Assembly: GCA_963842085.1 (NCBI GenBank)
Contig: CAWJET010000002.1
Location: 1,472,001-1,536,000 of the forward strand
DNA from: an uncultured delta proteobacterium
GTDB lineage: Bacteria; Desulfobacterota; Binatia; Binatales; Binataceae
DNA: 64,000 nucleotides
Direction: 5' to 3'
The translations under genes were made by a program, and so were the position numbers. The notes under the pieces were generated by a model. That model saw only the letters and a list, made by a program, of their open reading frames with translations, did no database searches and was not told the origin of the DNA. Positions within the stretch are counted from its first letter, which is position 1. Each line of letters opens with the position of its first letter. This document shows, piece by piece, positions 3,445 through 29,660 of this stretch.

Positions 3445-4378
3445 CAGCACCGTCGTCATCCGCGATCTGGTGAAGGACTTCCCGGGCGTCCGCGCGATCG
3501 ACCACCTGAACTTCGACGCCGCGCCCGGTGAAATCTTCGGCATCGTCGGTCCCGATGGCGCCGGCAAAACCACGATCATGCGCATCCTCGCAGGAGTGCT
3601 GCCGCCGGACGCCGGCACCGCCACCGTGGCGCGATGCGACGTGGTCGCCGATCCTGAAGGCGTCAAGCACCTGATCAGCTACATGCCGCAGCGCTTCGGC
3701 CTCTACGAAGACTTGACGGTTGACGAGAACATCCGATTTTACGCCGACCTGTTCGGCGTTCGCAGACGGGACCGCGAGGCGCGCGCCGCCGAACTGCTCC
3801 GAGCGTGCGGCATGCCGGAGTTCCGCGCCCGCCCGGCCGGCAAGCTCTCCGGCGGAATGAAGCAGAAGCTCGGCCTGGTCTGCGCCTTGATTCACACCCC
3901 GCGCGTGTTGCTACTCGATGAGCCGACCAACGGCGTCGATCCGGTTTCGCGCCGCGAATTCTGGGCGATGCTCTATTCGCTCGCCGGCCAGGGCGTCACC
4001 GTCATCAATTCCACCGCGTACCTCGACGAGGCCGAGCGATGCCATCGGATAGCGCTTCTTCATCAGGGACGTTTGCTCTTCTGCGACGCACCCGCACATC
4101 TCAAGTCGCAGCTCCAGGGCTCGGTCGTGTCGATCGTGTCGTCCGATGCGCGCCGGGTACGGGCTGAACTCGACGCCGCCGACGGCGTCTCGAGTTTGGT
4201 GATGGTCGGCGACGCAGTTCATTTGTTTGTCGATGACGCCGAGCGGCGCATCGCCGAGTTCAGCGCACGGTTGACCCGTGCGCAGATTCCGTTTGACGAG
4301 ATCGTCCGCGTTACACCGACCATCGAAGATCTTTTTGTCGAGGCAGTTCGCGAAGACTCGAGGCACGCGGCGGCATGA
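3437..4378 (+). CDS. ABC transporter ATP-binding protein
   Basis: Walker A GPDGAGKT, LSGGMKQ signature, LLLDEP. Confidence 0.93.
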   Translation: MDNSTVVIRDLVKDFPGVRAIDHLNFDAAPGEIFGIVGPDGAGKTTIMRILAGVLPPDAGTATVARCDVVADPEGVKHLISYMPQRFGLYEDLTVDENIRFYADLFGVRRRDREARAAELLRACGMPEFRARPAGKLSGGMKQKLGLVCALIHTPRVLLLDEPTNGVDPVSRREFWAMLYSLAGQGVTVINSTAYLDEAERCHRIALLHQGRLLFCDAPAHLKSQLQGSVVSIVSSDARRVRAELDAADGVSSLVMVGDAVHLFVDDAERRIAEFSARLTRAQIPFDEIVRVTPTIEDLFVEAVREDSRHAAA

Positions 4379-5337
4379 CGCGCGCCAACGGCAATTCGGT
4401 CGAAGTCGAAAACCTGGTGAAGCGCTTTGGCGATTTCACCGCCGTCGATCGCGTTTCGTTTCAGACCCGCGCCGGTGAAGTCTTCGGATTCCTCGGACCC
4501 AACGGCTCGGGAAAATCGACCACGATTCGAATCCTGTGCGGATTGCTGCTTCCGACCTCCGGCCGCGCTATCGTCGCCGGCTACGACGTTGTCCAATCGC
4601 CCGAGCTGATCCGCCGCAACATCGGCTACATGTCGCAGAAGTTCTCGCTCTACGCCGACCTAACCGTGTTGGAGAATTTGCGATTCTACGCGGGCATGTA
4701 TGGCGTGCCCGCGGCTGAGCTGCGCGGCCGGATCGATTGGGCGCTCGAGATGGCCGGCTTGCGCGGCCGCGAGTCGAGCCTGACCGGCACCCTCGCGGGC
4801 GGATGGAAGCAGCGGCTCGCACTCGGTTGCGCCGTCCTGCATCGCCCGCCAATCCTTTTCCTCGACGAACCGACCTCAGGCGTCGATCCGCTCTCGCGGC
4901 GCCTGTTCTGGGAGTTGATTCAGAGAATGAGCGACGACGGCGTCACCATCTTCGTCACGACGCACTACATGGACGAAGCCGAATATTGCAACCGTCTCGC
5001 ACTTATGAATGGCGGCAGGCTGATCGCGCTGGGCACACCCACCGAACTCAAGTTGGGCTCGATCCAGGGCTCGTTGCTGCTGCTCGAATGCGATCGGCTT
5101 GGCGACGCTATCGAACGCGTGCGCCGTATCGACGGCGTTCGCGACGTCGCCGTCTTCGGCAACGCCCTGCACCTGGTGGTATCCGACGCCGTCGTTACTC
5201 CCGCGATTCGCGCCGCGCTCGAGGCCGGCGCAATCTCGGTGGCCGGCTTGAGAGTGATTCGCCCCAGCCTCGAAGATGCGTTCGTCGCATTGACTACTCG
5301 CCGCAGCGCCGATGCCGCGCCGGAGCTGCCGCCATGA
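4375..5337 (+). CDS. ABC transporter ATP-binding protein
   Basis: Walker A GPNGSGKS, LAGGWKQR, LFLDEP, TTHY H-loop. Confidence 0.93.
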   Translation: MTRANGNSVEVENLVKRFGDFTAVDRVSFQTRAGEVFGFLGPNGSGKSTTIRILCGLLLPTSGRAIVAGYDVVQSPELIRRNIGYMSQKFSLYADLTVLENLRFYAGMYGVPAAELRGRIDWALEMAGLRGRESSLTGTLAGGWKQRLALGCAVLHRPPILFLDEPTSGVDPLSRRLFWELIQRMSDDGVTIFVTTHYMDEAEYCNRLALMNGGRLIALGTPTELKLGSIQGSLLLLECDRLGDAIERVRRIDGVRDVAVFGNALHLVVSDAVVTPAIRAALEAGAISVAGLRVIRPSLEDAFVALTTRRSADAAPELPP

Positions 5338-23387: not shown

Positions 23388-24533
23388 TCAGGCAGCGGCC
23401 GACCTTCCTTCAGGATACGATCCTAAGACCTTCAAGAATAGGGCCTTGCTCGAAAGCGACTTGAGCGCGCGCGCCAGCTTGGGGTCGTCGCGATGCCCCA
23501 TGACGTCGACAAAGAACAGGTATTCCCACGGCCGCGCGCGCAGCGGACGCGATTCGATCTTCGATATATTGATCGCATTGCGCGCAAACAGGTTAAGCGC
23601 CTGGTTGAGCGTGCCCACCCGGTCCGCGACCGCGAACAGCAGCGTGGTCTTGTCCTTCAGCGCCGGTGCCGAGCCCGACCGCTCGACCGGCCGCGTGCCC
23701 ATCACCAGGAATCGCGTCGTATTGTTGGCGACGTCCTGCACGTTCGACGCGATCGTCTTGAGCCCGTAGGCCTCGCCTGCCGCCGCCGACGCGATCGCCG
23801 CGAGCGACCCGTCCGCGGCCGCGCGCTGCGCTGCAAGCGCGTTGGACGCTACCGTCTCGGTCTCGCAACCGGCGAACTTCGCGCTCAAGTATCCGCGACA
23901 CTGCGCCAGGCTTTGCTGATGGGACACGATTCGCCTGACGTCGCCGGCCTTGCCGCTGAGCGACATTAGCGAGTGCCGAATCGGCAGCAGCACTTCGCCG
24001 ATTATCACCAGCGAGGTATCGATCAGGAGGTCGAGCGTCAGGGTCACCGATCCTTCGGTCGAGTTCTCGACCGGCACCACGCCGAAATCGGCACGACCGT
24101 TCTCGATCGCCTGGAACACTGCCGCGAACGACTCCAGCGGCATCAGCTCAACGCTCGAGCCGAACCGGATCCGTGTCGCCTCGTGCGAGTAGGTGTGCTC
24201 GGGGCCGAGGAACGCGACGCGCGGCTCGTGCTCGAGCGCGCGGCAGGCCGAAATTATCTCGACATAAATCCGCTTGAGCTGCTCGCCGGTCAGTGGCCCC
24301 TGGTTCTCGGCGAGCATCTTTTCGATAATTGCGCGCTCGCGCACCGGCTGATAAACCTCGCCGCCCTCATAGTGCTTGAGGCGGCCGATCTCTTTTGCCA
24401 CGCTGGCCCGCGCCGACACCAGCCGCAGGATCTTGAGATTTATCTCGTCCATCCGCGCGCGCAGAGCCTCAATCGACGGCGGCTCAGCGGCGGCGCCGGC
24501 CGGAGCTGATTTTCTGGCAATCCGCGCTGACAT
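23388..24533 (-). CDS. pheA: Chorismate mutase/prephenate dehydratase (P-protein)
   Basis: CM domain (LRARMDEIN), FLGPEHTYS, VPVENSTEG, NTTRFLV, KIESRP ACT domain. Confidence 0.95.
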   Translation of the reverse strand: MSARIARKSAPAGAAAEPPSIEALRARMDEINLKILRLVSARASVAKEIGRLKHYEGGEVYQPVRERAIIEKMLAENQGPLTGEQLKRIYVEIISACRALEHEPRVAFLGPEHTYSHEATRIRFGSSVELMPLESFAAVFQAIENGRADFGVVPVENSTEGSVTLTLDLLIDTSLVIIGEVLLPIRHSLMSLSGKAGDVRRIVSHQQSLAQCRGYLSAKFAGCETETVASNALAAQRAAADGSLAAIASAAAGEAYGLKTIASNVQDVANNTTRFLVMGTRPVERSGSAPALKDKTTLLFAVADRVGTLNQALNLFARNAINISKIESRPLRARPWEYLFFVDVMGHRDDPKLARALKSLSSKALFLKVLGSYPEGRSAAA

Positions 24534-24837: not shown

Positions 24838-24870
24838 CCTGAAGGGTCGAGTGGCGTGGTCGATTTCGTC

Positions 24871-26340
24871 ATGCATAGAAGCGGCGCGCGGGTAGCGCGG
24901 AGCGGGTCCGTCCCACGGCTGACTGCCGCGATTGCGGTGCTCGCGATCGTTGCCGTGGTGGTCGGCCAGCGGCAATGCTTCGCACAGGACGCGCAGGCGG
25001 AAGCGCTCGACTTGAGCGACCATGCGTTCGCGATGCTCAACGCAATCAACGCGGCGTCCACCACGGCCGGACCGATCCTGGCTCCGGCCGCCAGCCTGGC
25101 CGGCGATGCGCAAACGTTGTCGACGGCTCTGGGGGCGCATGACAATGCCGGCGCCAGCAGCGCGATGGCGGCGGTGCTGAGCGATCGCGACAAGATAGAA
25201 GCCGCGGCGAAGATTGCGGGCGGGCATTATCCGGAGGAGTGGAGCACTATCCGGCGAACGATCGCGGAGCTGGAAAAGCAGGTTCCGACTGCGAAAGGAC
25301 CTATAGCGCGCAGTGACGTGCCGGAGTCGCACGCATCGGTCGCGCCGCCACCCGGAGAAACGATCCCGGCCGCGCCCAAGATCGAGATCGCCTCGCGGGT
25401 CTTCAAGGGCGGAACGGTGCGGGTGAAGGGCTACCTGGAAGGCACCGACCTCAAGTCGGCTGGAATTTTCGACGGCGACACGAAGAGCAAAGATATCGAC
25501 GTCGCGAGCACGCCGGGTGAGCAGCGGATCAACTTCGATTTTTCGATCGACCAGCCTTCGCCGACACAGTCGATTCGCGTGACCGACTCGTACGGGCGCG
25601 AAGCGCAGGCGATGGTCGCGCCGGACCCGGCGGGAGTCGGCGCAATGAAGGGGAGCGAGGAACTGATCGAGGTCGATCCGGGCGCGACCGCGTCACCGGG
25701 CGAGGCGGGTCCGTTGGCCGAGAGCCCATTGGCGTCGGCGGGTCCCGCGGTTCGTCACAACACGGCCGAGATTCCGCGGCCGGACGATGAACTGTCGCCG
25801 TCGCGCCGTCATATCGACGCAAACTCGTCGGTGGGGCCGCTGACGAATGTGCAGATCAACGTGATCGACGCCGAGGAATTGATGTCGGCGCCGGGAATGG
25901 TCGAAGTAGTCGGGCAGATCGCGGGGCCAGGTGTGCGTCATGCGGGCGTTTACGTCAATGGCCGGCTAGTCAAGCCGATCGGGATAAGCCCAAGCGGCTA
26001 CAGCGCCTTCGACCTGACTTTTCCGATGCCGGCGGGCAGCGACGCGAGGATTCGCGCGTACGGCAACGGCAACGACTTCGTGGAAGCGTCGATTGACACG
26101 GTGGGTGGAGGCAGCGGGATAACGGAGTATCGCAACCCGCCGATGTACGCAGCTCCGTACGGAGCCTACCCCGCGTATCCGGGGGCGCCGTATTACGGAG
26201 CCAATCCATACGCCTACGCGAATCCGTATGCGCCGGGCTACAATCCGTACGCGCCCAATCCGTATCCATATGGATACCCGCCGCCGTACGGCACGACGGC
26301 TCCGGTTAACCGTCCGTGGTACAGCAGACTGTTCCATTAG
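24871..26340 (+). CDS. Exported hypothetical protein with two beta-rich domains and a Tyr/Pro/Asn-rich tail
   Basis: Signal/TM segment, long ORF with coding-like codon usage, NPY/PY repeats at the C-terminus. Confidence 0.7.
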   Translation: MHRSGARVARSGSVPRLTAAIAVLAIVAVVVGQRQCFAQDAQAEALDLSDHAFAMLNAINAASTTAGPILAPAASLAGDAQTLSTALGAHDNAGASSAMAAVLSDRDKIEAAAKIAGGHYPEEWSTIRRTIAELEKQVPTAKGPIARSDVPESHASVAPPPGETIPAAPKIEIASRVFKGGTVRVKGYLEGTDLKSAGIFDGDTKSKDIDVASTPGEQRINFDFSIDQPSPTQSIRVTDSYGREAQAMVAPDPAGVGAMKGSEELIEVDPGATASPGEAGPLAESPLASAGPAVRHNTAEIPRPDDELSPSRRHIDANSSVGPLTNVQINVIDAEELMSAPGMVEVVGQIAGPGVRHAGVYVNGRLVKPIGISPSGYSAFDLTFPMPAGSDARIRAYGNGNDFVEASIDTVGGGSGITEYRNPPMYAAPYGAYPAYPGAPYYGANPYAYANPYAPGYNPYAPNPYPYGYPPPYGTTAPVNRPWYSRLFH

Positions 26341-26425
26341 TGCGCGACCGCGAACTTGCCGCGCGCTACGGGCTTGCGTAGAATTCCCTTCTTAACCTTC
26401 GTTCTTTATCGAGAGTGTCCACACG

Positions 26426-26989
26426 ATGCTGATTCAAGCGACGCAACTGCGCCCGGGTATGATTGTCGAATACAACAACGACCTGTGGCGGATCATGACG
26501 ATCACGCATATCACGCCGGGCAACTGGCGCGGGATGGTGCAAACCAAGCTGCGCAACGTGAAGACGGGGTCGCAAACCGAGAACCGCTTCCGCTCGGAAG
26601 ATCGCGTCGAGCGGATAATCCTGAACCAGAGCAAGATGCAGTTCCTGTACCAGGACGGCGACGATTTCCATTTCATGAACACCGAGAACTACGAGCAGAT
26701 CACGATTCCCAAGGAGCTGATCGAGGACGTGGTCGGATTCCTGACGCCGAACCTGGAAGTCGAAGTCGAGTTCTATGAAACGACGCCGCTCAACGTGACG
26801 CTGCCGAAGACGGTCGCGCTCAAGGTGATGCAGACCGACCCGGGAATGAAGACGGCGGCCGTGAACAATACGCTCAAGCCGGCGACGCTCGAGACCGGGA
26901 TGGTCATCAACGTGCCGCATTTCGTGGCCGAGGGCGACACGATCACGATCAACACCGAAACGCACGAGTACCTGTCACGCTCGAAGTAG
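26426..26989 (+). CDS. efp: Elongation factor P (Asn at the Lys34-equivalent position)
   Basis: LRPGM, HITPGNWRG loop, QFLYQDG, FMNTENYEQ, KPATLETG, VPHF. Confidence 0.95.
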   Translation: MLIQATQLRPGMIVEYNNDLWRIMTITHITPGNWRGMVQTKLRNVKTGSQTENRFRSEDRVERIILNQSKMQFLYQDGDDFHFMNTENYEQITIPKELIEDVVGFLTPNLEVEVEFYETTPLNVTLPKTVALKVMQTDPGMKTAAVNNTLKPATLETGMVINVPHFVAEGDTITINTETHEYLSRSK

Positions 26990-27000
26990 CGGGTTGAGAA

Positions 27001-28164
27001 TTGACTGGCGCGCGCCAGACGTATCGACCTGCCGGGCGCGTCCGCAGGGCTGCGCCAGAGCGCGCGCAGCCGCATCCTGTCCGGTTCGGGCCAAATCTCT
27101 ACATCGCGCATACGCAGCCCGGGTTCGAAGGAATCGCGGCGGACGAGATAGCTGGACGCGTCCCCGGCGCGCGCGAGATCGCGCGGCGCGCGGTGCCCGA
27201 TCGCGCCGGGATGACGCTTTTCTTCGCGCCGGCAGCCGAGAAGCTCGGTGTGATCCGAACGGCTGAGGACCTGTTCGGGCTGGCCGGCTACCGCTCCGGA
27301 ATCGGGCCGGGGAGCGCGGCACTGGACAAGATTCGCGGCGCGGCGCGCGAAGCGCCGCTGGTCGAGGCGGCGATTCAGGCGCGCGTGAAGGTCTCGCCGG
27401 GGGCGCGCGCGGGCCGCAGGCTCAAGTTCCGCGTGATCGCCAGGATGGCGGGAGCGCACGAATTTCGCCGCGTCGATTTCCAGCGCGCGGTCGAGCGCGG
27501 GATTCTCGAGCGGAGCGATCACACCTGGCGGCTGGAAGAAGCGGACGCCGATCTCGAGTTCTGGGCGACGATGATCGACGCCGAGTTCTTTTTTACGGTG
27601 CGGCTCAGCGACGACCGCATGCGGCATCGCGAGTACAAGACTGCCCATCGCCCGGCGTCGCTGCGCGCGTCGAGTGCGGCAGCGCTCGCGTGGCTGTCTG
27701 AGCCGCGCGACGACGACATCGTGCTCGATCCATTTTGCGGCGCGGGCACCATACTGATCGAGCGGGCACACCTGGGACGGTACGCGATGCTGATTGGCAG
27801 CGATCGCGACCAGGCGGCGCTCGCGGCGGCGCGCGTGAATGTCGGCGCGCGCTACAAGCCAATCCGGCTCGAGAACTGGGACGCGGGAGCGCTGCCGCTC
27901 GGCGACGCCAGCGTGAACAAAATCGTCACCAACCTGCCGTGGGGATTGCGCTACGGCTCGCACGGCGAGAATCGAAAACTCTATCCGCTGTGGATGCGGG
28001 AGTTCGCACGCGTGCTCAAACGCGGCGGCGCGATGGTGATGATTACGGCGGAGTGGCGGCTGATGCGCGAGCTCGAGCGCACCCGCAGGATCGCGCCGAG
28101 CAAAATTATTCGCGTGTCGGTACTCGGCAAATCGGCGGCGATTTACGTGTGCCGCAAAGACTAG
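27001..28164 (+). CDS. THUMP-like/UPF0020 amino-methyltransferase (TrmN/Trm14-like)
   Basis: RMRHREY..HRPASLR, LDPFCGAGTILIE, IVTNLPWG; begins 11 nt after efp (TTG start uncertain). Confidence 0.8.
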   Translation: MTGARQTYRPAGRVRRAAPERAQPHPVRFGPNLYIAHTQPGFEGIAADEIAGRVPGAREIARRAVPDRAGMTLFFAPAAEKLGVIRTAEDLFGLAGYRSGIGPGSAALDKIRGAAREAPLVEAAIQARVKVSPGARAGRRLKFRVIARMAGAHEFRRVDFQRAVERGILERSDHTWRLEEADADLEFWATMIDAEFFFTVRLSDDRMRHREYKTAHRPASLRASSAAALAWLSEPRDDDIVLDPFCGAGTILIERAHLGRYAMLIGSDRDQAALAAARVNVGARYKPIRLENWDAGALPLGDASVNKIVTNLPWGLRYGSHGENRKLYPLWMREFARVLKRGGAMVMITAEWRLMRELERTRRIAPSKIIRVSVLGKSAAIYVCRKD

Positions 28165-28169
28165 ACGCC

Positions 28170-29528
28170 CTAGTTTGCCGGGGAGAAAAAGGCGAGCACC
28201 GCGTTTGAGACCTCGTGCGGCGCGCTGCCGTCGATTGGCACGATCCACGCCGACGGCGGAGGCGCATAGCCGAGCGAGTGTTCGGGCGATCCCACCAGGC
28301 GCACCCCCGCGTAGACAAATGACGACGAATCGGGCGCCCAGATGGTGTGCGAGACAGCAAGCTGATCGAAGTAGCGGTACGCGGTCGCCTCGTCGGGCGT
28401 CGCGAGAAAATTGCCGAGCGTTTTTTCGGCGCCAGTCTCAACGTCAACCACCGACCACGTGTAGTACGGTTTCTCCTGGGGGACGCCGATGAACGCGACA
28501 TGGCGCGAGTCGGGCGCAAAGAAAAATGCGGCGACATCGTCCTTGGTCAGCCACTTCGAATTCGCGGTGGCGATGTCTACCAGCTTGATGCCGTGATAGG
28601 TAGGATCCTGCGGGTCGATTGCCGTCGAGTAGGCGAGGTGCGCCGAGTCGGGCGCCCACACAAAGCTGTTCTCTCCCACCGGCAGGCTCACGACGGAGCG
28701 CGGATGGCCGGCGTCGGCGTCGGCGACCACGATGTTCGATTCGGCGTGGTAGTTCGCGACGTAGGCGAGATGCTTGCCGTCCGGCGACCAAACGGGGGTC
28801 TTGAACGGCGTGCGCCCGGTCGAGAGCACCTTGACTACGTTCTGGCTGGTGGGCGTCACGCTCATCAGCGAAACCCGTTCGATGTGATCCGGGTCGAGTG
28901 CGAGCGAGTGAATCGCGACCTCGCCGGGCCGCGGGCCCCAATCGAAGTACAGCGGCATCCCGGTGGCAACGATTCTGACCGGCGTTGATTCCTTGACCTC
29001 GGCCAGCACCAGGGTGAGTCCGCGCTGTTCGCCGAGCAGGAATGAAAGATGCTGCCCGTCGGGCAGCCAAAGCATGTAGACGATACGCTCGGAGCGGCTC
29101 TCGAAGATTTGCGTGGACTGGAGGTGGCCGAGCTCGTAAACCCAAACGGCGAACGAATCCTCGGCTTGCTTGTGAGTCTCGGACGAATACGCGATGCGCT
29201 TGCCGTCGGGCGAGAACGTCGGCCATCCGTAATCGGTGGTGTTGCCGCCCGGGCCCGCGTCGCGGGCGGAGCCGGCAACCCGGACAATCGCAGGTTCGCG
29301 CGCATCGTCGCGCCGGACCTGAATCGCGGCGGCCTTGCACGTGATGCACTTTGGCGCCCGGCATTGGGCATCGCAGTAGTAGATGTTGGAATCGGTGCCG
29401 ACGTAGGCGATCATGCCCGGCGGCGGCGCGCCGTGAGCAATCGAGCGGAGTGCGAATAGAAAAATGGCTGCGGCAGCGGCGGAAATTCGCAGGCTTGCAC
29501 GCACGGAGCGCCTCGCAAATATCCTCAT
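28170..29528 (-). CDS. TolB-like/PD40 beta-propeller exported protein
   Basis: Repeated PTFSPDGKRIAY, WSPDGKHLAY, WAPDS motifs; signal peptide. Confidence 0.8.
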   Translation of the reverse strand: MRIFARRSVRASLRISAAAAAIFLFALRSIAHGAPPPGMIAYVGTDSNIYYCDAQCRAPKCITCKAAAIQVRRDDAREPAIVRVAGSARDAGPGGNTTDYGWPTFSPDGKRIAYSSETHKQAEDSFAVWVYELGHLQSTQIFESRSERIVYMLWLPDGQHLSFLLGEQRGLTLVLAEVKESTPVRIVATGMPLYFDWGPRPGEVAIHSLALDPDHIERVSLMSVTPTSQNVVKVLSTGRTPFKTPVWSPDGKHLAYVANYHAESNIVVADADAGHPRSVVSLPVGENSFVWAPDSAHLAYSTAIDPQDPTYHGIKLVDIATANSKWLTKDDVAAFFFAPDSRHVAFIGVPQEKPYYTWSVVDVETGAEKTLGNFLATPDEATAYRYFDQLAVSHTIWAPDSSSFVYAGVRLVGSPEHSLGYAPPPSAWIVPIDGSAPHEVSNAVLAFFSPAN

Positions 29529-29660
29529 CGAGCTTAGGATTGCGCCTGCAGGGACGCCAAGGCAAGAACGATCCGCGCAGGAACGGACTCTATCCGGATG
29601 CGGCGACAACCGATAGCAGCGTGTTGACACGACCGCGGCCAATCGCGCAAAGTTGACCAC

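Follow-up and report, generated by a model that had tools for sequence, protein, structure and literature searches.

The present study concerns two adjacent genes in a 64,000-nucleotide stretch of DNA (the window, to which plain coordinates refer) from an uncultured delta proteobacterium of the family Binataceae (assembly GCA_963842085.1, contig CAWJET010000002.1, positions 1,472,001 to 1,536,000 of the forward strand). The first, efp, encodes elongation factor P (EF-P) with an asparagine at the tip of its beta3-beta4 loop, and the second encodes a methyltransferase. An earlier note on this DNA had proposed that the pair represents a new route of EF-P activation. Our analysis, which covers the identity of each gene, its motifs and predicted fold, the layout of the operon, and how widely the genes occur, favors a plainer explanation. 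The downstream gene probably encodes an ordinary TrmN/Trm14-like enzyme that forms N2-methylguanosine (m2G) in tRNA, and the two genes would make up a two-gene translation operon in this Candidatus Binatus genome. Judged from the distribution of its gene, the enzyme does not activate Asn-tipped EF-P in general, nor is it obligatory for that activation. More than 100 related genomes use the same loop and lack the enzyme, so that the N-W-R loop most likely functions independently of it.

The two genes and their parts are as follows.

26356 to 26384, plus strand: promoter-like site in which 17 nt separate TTGCCG from TAGAAT; it lies about 40 nt 5′ of efp and comes from a consensus scan.
26426 to 26989, plus strand: efp, 187 amino acids, the sole EF-P gene in the genome (three EF-P domains, TIGR00038, single EFP_N match).
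26507 to 26533, plus strand: beta3-beta4 loop H28-I-T-P-G-N33-W-R-G36, with the Asn33 codon AAC at 26522-26524.
26990 to 27000, plus strand: intergenic gap of 11 nt, from the ends of the open reading frames (ORFs) of efp and the methyltransferase.
27001 to 28164, plus strand: TrmN/Trm14-like RNA (guanine-N2) methyltransferase, 387 amino acids, TTG start, assigned by PF01170, a PDB profile search, and the fold of an AlphaFold2 model.
27094 to 27615, plus strand: N-terminal THUMP domain (NFLD plus core), about residues 32-205, from structural alignment; the borders are approximate and come from the secondary structure of the model.
27727 to 27750, plus strand: S-adenosylmethionine (SAM)-binding motif I, D243-P-F-C-G-A-G-T250, from the sequence and 27 orthologues.
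27931 to 27945, plus strand: catalytic motif IV, N311-L-P-W-G315, from the sequence and the same orthologues.

The product of the first gene scored above the Pfam cut-offs for all three EF-P domains (PF08207, PF01132, and PF09285, at 78.5, 78.1, and 74.6 bits, respectively) and above that of the NCBIfam efp equivalog TIGR00038 (230.9 bits versus 185.8). The equivalog cut-offs for EfpL/YeiP were not reached (149.3 versus 216 for NF003392; 144.7 versus 264.05 for TIGR02178). EFP_N matched only once in the genome, which is scored 100% complete. The sequence bears out the HITPG-N33-WRG loop described earlier, in which Asn stands in place of the modifiable Lys or Arg; this departure from the usual tip is a known minority state, and the protein keeps its membership in EF-P. 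To judge from the alignment, Asn33 is neither an error nor a chance variant, because H[IV]TPGNWRGMV is common to 80/80 related public loci (the best 80 of 569 confirmed stretches; EF-P 76-98% identical). No EpmA scored above the cut-off in the same genome (best match 41.2 bits versus 286.9). No EarP match was found there either, a weak negative since the control for that search gave a signal in 0/14 genomes. The promoter-like site is no more than a match to a pattern; the consensus scan returned one such site where shuffled sequences gave 0.3.

The efp stop codon (TAG, 26987-26989) lies 11 nt from the TTG start of the methyltransferase gene. An in-frame TGA (26995-26997) precedes this TTG, which is the first start codon after it; an ATG in the same frame does not follow until M71, within the fold. 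A site scan found no terminator-like site on the plus strand between the two genes, and their layout suggests that they probably share one transcript. The earlier description of a methyltransferase with DPFCGAGT and NLPW motifs 11 nt 3′ of efp was correct in every detail. Across the 27 orthologues (47-100% identical; alignment A1), D243, P244, C246, G247, and T250 of motif I and N311, P313, W314, and G315 of motif IV are invariant, and L312 is kept in at least 90%. At the G249 column, four sequences (P0002, L068, L084, and L111) read C-G-A-A-T, not C-G-A-G-T. The second glycine of motif I is, as far as this alignment tells, not essential in the methyltransferase clade.

By sequence and by predicted fold, the enzyme is a member of the TrmN/Trm14 family, and every close relative found by either means is an RNA m2G methyltransferase. 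Its only Pfam match is the UPF0020 (RMKL-like) domain PF01170 (115.1 bits), and a UPF0020 search of its own genome gave one strong protein (116.6 bits; runner-up 32.1). The A1 profile, compared with PDB sequences, matched Trm14 (2.1e-28), TrmN (4.7e-20), Trm11 (about 1e-15), and RlmL (2.2e-9). Every NCBIfam match was under its cut-off, the RlmK/L model NF008748 included (54 versus 466), and the match list held no bacterial TrmN model. Public pipelines mostly name the close relatives “tRNA (guanine6-N2)-methyltransferase” (best 120 of 744 matches).

The AlphaFold2 model was built on A1 (mean predicted local distance difference test [pLDDT] 80.7, predicted TM-score [pTM] 0.81; residues 1-22 of low confidence). 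In Foldseek, Trm14 (TM 0.71) and TrmN (TM 0.78) took the top ranks for this model. In VIA-align, model residues 32-387 superposed on Trm14 residues 1-367 (Z 26.6, root-mean-square deviation [rmsd] 3.7 Å, 332 residues) and model residues 29-387 on TrmN residues 0-335 (Z 25.6, rmsd 3.5 Å, 325/332 residues). The corresponding Z values were 20.8-23.1 for RlmL-type enzymes, with 20.8-20.9 for RlmL/RlmK, and about 18 for Trm11. Modeled residues 25-209 match the THUMP part of ThiI (residues 1-168, RNA complex) with Z 12.4, and protein methyltransferases such as PrmC match the predicted catalytic domain only (Z 11.4). The domain build predicted by structural alignment is that of TrmN and Trm14, namely a THUMP domain with NFLD and core followed by a Rossmann-fold methyltransferase domain. 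The THUMP-type label given to the enzyme earlier is upheld by this full-length structural match only; the 7 Pfam families reported at E ≤ 0.001 did not include THUMP.

The efp-methyltransferase pair is fixed in Binataceae. An orthologue of the enzyme is present in 24/24 other genomes of the genus, and efp adjoins it in 25/25 loci including that of the window; these counts take in the unpublished genomes G018 and G023, and without both the count is 23/23. The enzyme gene (45-90% identity) lies directly 3′ of efp in 78/80 of the public loci, and the two loci without it end 197 and 14 nt past efp. In the window's own family (f1, Binataceae) of a class-wide sample, the pair occurs in 18/18 genomes. 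Metagenome contigs, scanned with a distant member of the enzyme family as the lead, gave 570 confirmed stretches, the best 80 of which comprise 22 Binataceae-like and 58 other loci. Of the 22 (NLPWG, at least 56% identity), 21 have efp upstream. The sole exception (L244:1-711) shows no efp in the 640 nt upstream; it resembles its relatives only from base 641 onward, a point 70 nt ahead of the gene, which suggests a rearrangement or an assembly join.

At the level of the class, however, the association that the earlier note proposed to test, between PGN-type efp and this clade of methyltransferases, breaks down. The class sample comprised 151 genomes from 19 families, and EF-P was found in 149 of them. 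The motif T-P-G-N-W-R-G-M-V-Q occurs once each in 81/151 genomes (reversed control, 0 matches), 63 of these 81 lying outside f1 in eight families. The broader H-x-T-P-G-N-x-R-[GA] occurs in 121/151 genomes from 15/19 families (control, 0 matches). Full-length matches to the enzyme are confined to f1, where 18/18 genomes reach E ≤ 1.7e-97. Another 18 matches to the enzyme query in the class (1.8e-17 to 9.8e-6) span about 50-140 residues, mostly of the catalytic domain, and the best of them, at 1.8e-17, covers residues 211-321 only. A full-length orthologue findable with this query was present in 0/103 Asn-tip genomes outside f1. The enzyme gene was not within 1.5 kb of efp in the 12 PGNWRG loci read from other families. 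Two such genomes that are 100% complete and carry the PGNWRG loop (G032 and G040) gave no real PF01170/UPF0020 match (best E 4.6e-4 and 6.6e-4, respectively). Three more (G047, G099, and G055) encode a different UPF0020 protein (148-153 bits); its gene is about 414 kb or 557 kb away from efp, or on a separate contig, and tblastn gave no similarity between it and the window enzyme. The loop is letter-for-letter identical in genomes with and without the enzyme. Because the 103 Asn-tip genomes have no orthologue and two complete genomes have no UPF0020 protein, the enzyme is not the general activation route, and the evidence does not support the proposed new route of EF-P activation as a general mechanism.

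In 20 further class loci that were read, the Asn-type loops were PGNWRG, PGNKRG, and PGNLRA, and Lys-type loops occurred in four families and part of a fifth (PGKGNA and PGKGHG among the loci L151-L170). Many genomes of the families f6, f7, f9, f10, and f13 carry a second, distant EF-P paralogue, for example that of L170 with an S-P-S-A-R-G loop and 36% identity. No conserved neighbor of Asn-type efp was found in other families (Pfam on 109 ORFs from 27 efp loci); the neighbors vary and include acyl-CoA dehydrogenase, aldolase-like, cupin, and TrmB-like proteins. The TrmB-like methyltransferase gene (PF02390, 115-120 bits) stands directly 3′ of Asn-type efp in two other families (L150:2036-2704 and L161:3194-3790). 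In gene order, these two loci parallel the pair in the window, with a tRNA methyltransferase gene again next after efp, and they count in favor of a tRNA-directed role for the window enzyme.

A deoxyhypusine-synthase-like protein was considered as a partner of the Asn-tipped EF-P. A gene for it is present in the same genome, outside the window (G000:C2:284668-285570, locus L002; PF01916, 317.9 bits). PF01916 occurs in 147/151 class genomes, Lys-tip families included, and three of the four genomes without it belong to a Lys-tip family (f15). This candidate was rejected, since such a distribution does not discriminate between the tip types; nor is there an obvious chemistry for it on Asn.

The explanation that we favor runs as follows. 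The first product is the sole EF-P of the cell and belongs to the catalogued Asn-tipped type (P-G-N-W-R-G); its contacts with the CCA end may come from W34 and R35. In the second product, the THUMP domain would grip the 3′ end of an RNA, and the Rossmann-fold domain would carry out SAM-dependent methylation of the exocyclic N2 of a guanine via N-L-P-W. The likeliest substrate would be G6, or a neighboring acceptor-stem G, in a subset of tRNAs. It is the RNA substrate, the position G6, and the unmodified state of EF-P that we infer here. An unmodified N-W-R loop, the alternative that the earlier note itself named, or an enzyme acting on tRNA fits the evidence better than modification of EF-P.

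The tRNA genes of the same genome, predicted by ARAGORN (n = 53, some ends one base off), offer such substrates. G6 is present in 19/53, tRNA-Phe among them. The three tRNA-Pro genes read U6, U6, and C6, and tRNA-Pro is therefore unlikely to be a methylation target at position 6. tRNA-Pro(GGG) and tRNA-Pro(CGG) both begin C-G-G-G-G-U-G, which gives U6 and G7. In the acceptor stem of tRNA-Pro(GGG), the only stem that was read, position 67 is A, and the known Trm14/TrmN sites are absent. A selenocysteine tRNA (tRNA-SeC) is among the 53 predictions.

Several observations weigh against an ordinary tRNA enzyme. At E ≤ 1e-30, an exhaustive representative search gave 152 clusters, many of which match over the full length with 30-45% identity, and 16 distant representatives were aligned with the window enzyme (alignment A2). 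The 58 non-Binataceae metagenome loci mostly carry NLPFG and are 32-49% identical to the window enzyme. A genuine EF-P gene lies within about 300 nt in 6/58 of these loci and in three orientations: convergent in L197 and L219 (loop H-H-A-P-G-N-W-R-A), divergent in L217 and L232 (K-P-G-R-G loops), and co-directional in L224 and L230 (K-P-G-R-G in L224; the contig does not include the loop of L230). All five readable loops are non-lysine (two PGNWRA and three KPGRG). An efp-linked member occurs in 4/18 non-Binataceae clusters (single linkage at 60% identity). By this gene-neighborhood evidence, efp adjacency of the methyltransferase family is more frequent than pure chance or generic clustering suggests. 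In NCBIfam, moreover, the cut-offs of the Trm14 models were not reached (97.4 versus 280 for Trm14_Arch and 92.4 versus 480 for Trm14_Thcoccales), and strict Trm14 orthology is not established. The EmtA-type 23S rRNA model scores as well as they do (104.6 versus 625). Finally, the aromatic W in motif IV of the window enzyme lies outside the published consensus; Trm14 has Y and TrmN has H at this place.

The surroundings of the efp-linked homologues bear on how these points are read. All neighbors other than efp differ among the efp-linked groups. In a quick IQ-TREE phylogeny, the efp-linked distant loci form separate, well-supported clades. The clade that is sister to the Binataceae enzymes contains L197 and L219 (97% in the Shimodaira-Hasegawa-like approximate likelihood-ratio test, SH-aLRT), and L224 and L230 have a der-linked clade as their sister. 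Clades linked to efp are interleaved with those linked to der, and both kinds have NLPFG. Within the cluster of L197, efp is present in only 2/8 members with both flanks visible. In the 52 loci that lack efp, a scan covered the closest ORF of 100 or more amino acids on either side, where there was one (77 ORFs). The commonest neighbors were der/EngA (10), short-chain dehydrogenases (7), creatininase (4), FIST (3), and MiaB-like radical-SAM proteins (3). In L198, L205, and L227, the order is der (EngA GTPase), methyltransferase, and MiaB-like radical-SAM gene, and der lies upstream in 10 loci. L215 carries a second UPF0020 methyltransferase gene (4087-5250, 86 bits) directly after the homologue, that is, a tandem paralogue pair. 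Since the family sits among translation genes (der, miaB-like, and efp), its clades are interleaved, and the same THUMP domain and motif recur, a single class of RNA substrate, with translation-gene neighbors that vary, is a simpler assumption than a change to a protein substrate made several times over.

The rival that survives best also keeps an RNA substrate. The target, either the acceptor stem of the P-site tRNA or a 23S guanine near the peptidyl-transferase center, would cooperate with non-lysine EF-Ps, and its methylation would tune the surface that their short tips touch, EF-P itself not being the substrate. We hold this possible, though only tentatively. It would account for the efp adjacency in at least four clades, in three orientations and with otherwise different neighbors, and for the fact that every readable linked EF-P is Asn- or Arg-tipped. 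The full-length fold also fits the RlmL-type 23S m2G2445 enzymes (Z 20.8-23.1, as given above), the EmtA 23S model is the best NCBIfam match, and der, a 50S assembly GTPase, is the commonest neighbor elsewhere. Yet the 103 Asn-tip genomes do without the enzyme, the tRNA-Pro genes read U6, U6, and C6, and tRNA-Pro(GGG), with A67, has none of the known Trm14/TrmN sites. Furthermore, 6/8 sister-clade members with both flanks visible lack efp, and the four clades may represent fewer independent events.

A direct enzyme-EF-P link is a minority possibility. On this reading, the enzyme would recognize EF-P as a tRNA mimic and methylate it at the amide nitrogen of Asn33 or at Arg35, and at the tip Arg in other lineages; we regard this as improbable. 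In its favor, the 11-nt operon link is fixed family-wide while the enzyme diverges to 47% identity, and members of distant clades again stand beside efp, in every readable case with a tip other than Lys. Two precedents count for it as well: a Gln amide is methylated by enzymes of the N/D-P-P-Y/F type, PrmC among them, and EF-P is recognized as a tRNA mimic by EpmA. On the other hand, co-occurrence is confined to one family (0/103 other Asn-tip genomes), and presence or absence of the enzyme makes no difference to the loop sequence. The enzyme retains the catalytic motif and the complete RNA-binding THUMP domain, both of which it shares with the der-linked relatives. Docked as a tRNA mimic, EF-P would place its tip where the CCA end lies, held in the THUMP domain and away from an active site that reaches position 6. 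The wider form of the idea, that a TrmN-like clade was recruited in several lineages as the partner of EF-Ps without a modifiable lysine and methylates the loop itself, is likewise improbable. If it is true, EF-P would have a fifth type of modification, one of minimal chemistry, whose enzyme recognizes EF-P by its likeness to tRNA.

Least probable of all is an EmtA-like 23S rRNA methyltransferase acting against an orthosomycin-type antibiotic, with efp adjacency incidental: NF033398 (EmtA family, G2470) is the top NCBIfam match over nearly the whole length (residues 33-361 on model positions 2-309 of 336), but its 104.6 bits are far under 625, and the gene belongs to the fixed, vertically inherited core of the family (18/18, 25/25, and 78/80), unlike a patchy resistance gene.

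An ordinary TrmN/Trm14-like tRNA enzyme next to an EF-P of a type already known, whose mechanism is unexplained, is thus the reading we retain. On how Asn-tipped EF-Ps rescue polyproline stalling, published work (PMC6544042) offers only their existence and the finding that K34N is dead in E. coli. The window enzyme, an attractive candidate, is now removed as the general answer, as the Asn loop serves most of this bacterial class without it. The class-wide result points to a loop that works unmodified via W34 and R35, or to some other modifier. The recurrence of TrmN-like THUMP methyltransferase genes beside non-lysine-tip efp is a modest new observation, apparently without an earlier record in the literature searched.

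Around the pair, a 494-amino-acid ORF lies directly 5′ of efp (24856-26340, plus strand); it has no Pfam match, and its C-terminal stretch is rich in Pro, Tyr, Ala, and Asn. Farther upstream is a PheA-type chorismate mutase/prephenate dehydratase gene (23388-24533, minus strand). A PD40 beta-propeller protein is encoded convergently with the methyltransferase gene (28170-29660, minus strand).

Among known enzymes, the tRNA m2G6 methyltransferases TrmN of Thermus thermophilus (3TMA) and Trm14 of Pyrococcus furiosus (3TLJ/3TM5) have the same two-domain build and motif I as the window enzyme. Fislage et al. 2012 (PMC3367198) describe a motif IV that lines the guanine pocket of amino-methyltransferases and has the consensus D/N-P/L-P-Y/F/H, with N293-L-P-Y in P. 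furiosus Trm14 and N260-P-P-H in TrmN. The NLPW of the window enzyme is near the NLPY of Trm14, and the distant homologues have NLPF. Identity to TrmN/Trm14 is only 22-25%. Unlike them, the window enzyme carries a poorly conserved 30-residue N-terminal extension of low model confidence and stands in a fixed operon with efp. The RlmL-type enzymes (the N-terminal half of E. coli RlmKL, 3V97; also 3LDU, 3LDG, and 3K0B) have the same domain build and are clearly more distant than TrmN/Trm14.

The genes of the EF-P modifiers EpmA/EpmB and EarP lie near efp, as does that of the window enzyme (25/25 loci in the genus, 78/80 public, 21/22 Binataceae-like metagenome, and 6/58 distant loci), and a tRNA-related enzyme acting on a tRNA mimic would follow the same logic. 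In the library searched, we found no published link between THUMP enzymes and EF-P. According to PMC6544042, EpmA/EpmB and EarP track their EF-P subtype closely. In contrast, the window enzyme does not track the EF-P subtype (0/103), and we saw no homology between it and EpmA, EpmB, or EarP.

The EF-P of the window resembles the catalogued Asn-tip EF-Ps in its Asn tip, in the proline two residues upstream, and in the deoxyhypusine-synthase-like gene of its genome. According to Volkwein et al. 2019 (PMC6544042), Asn at the tip co-occurs with this proline in 100% of cases, Lys- or Asn-tip taxa can carry a deoxyhypusine-synthase-like protein, and E. coli EF-P K34N is inactive, as are A, M, and Q at position 34. 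Here, by contrast, P-G-N-W-R-G is the loop of the sole EF-P of the cell. Because K34N is dead in the E. coli protein, the natural N-W-R loop must work differently. Sieber et al. 2024 (PMC11611912) list Asn among the EF-P tip residues and describe EfpL as unmodified, and 10.1101/2023.09.18.558224 describes the PGKGP subfamily as unmodified Lys-tip EF-Ps. PGKGP and EfpL/YeiP are precedents for EF-Ps that, through a changed loop, function with an unmodified tip, with the difference that a Lys or Arg tip is kept there, whereas the tip is Asn here.

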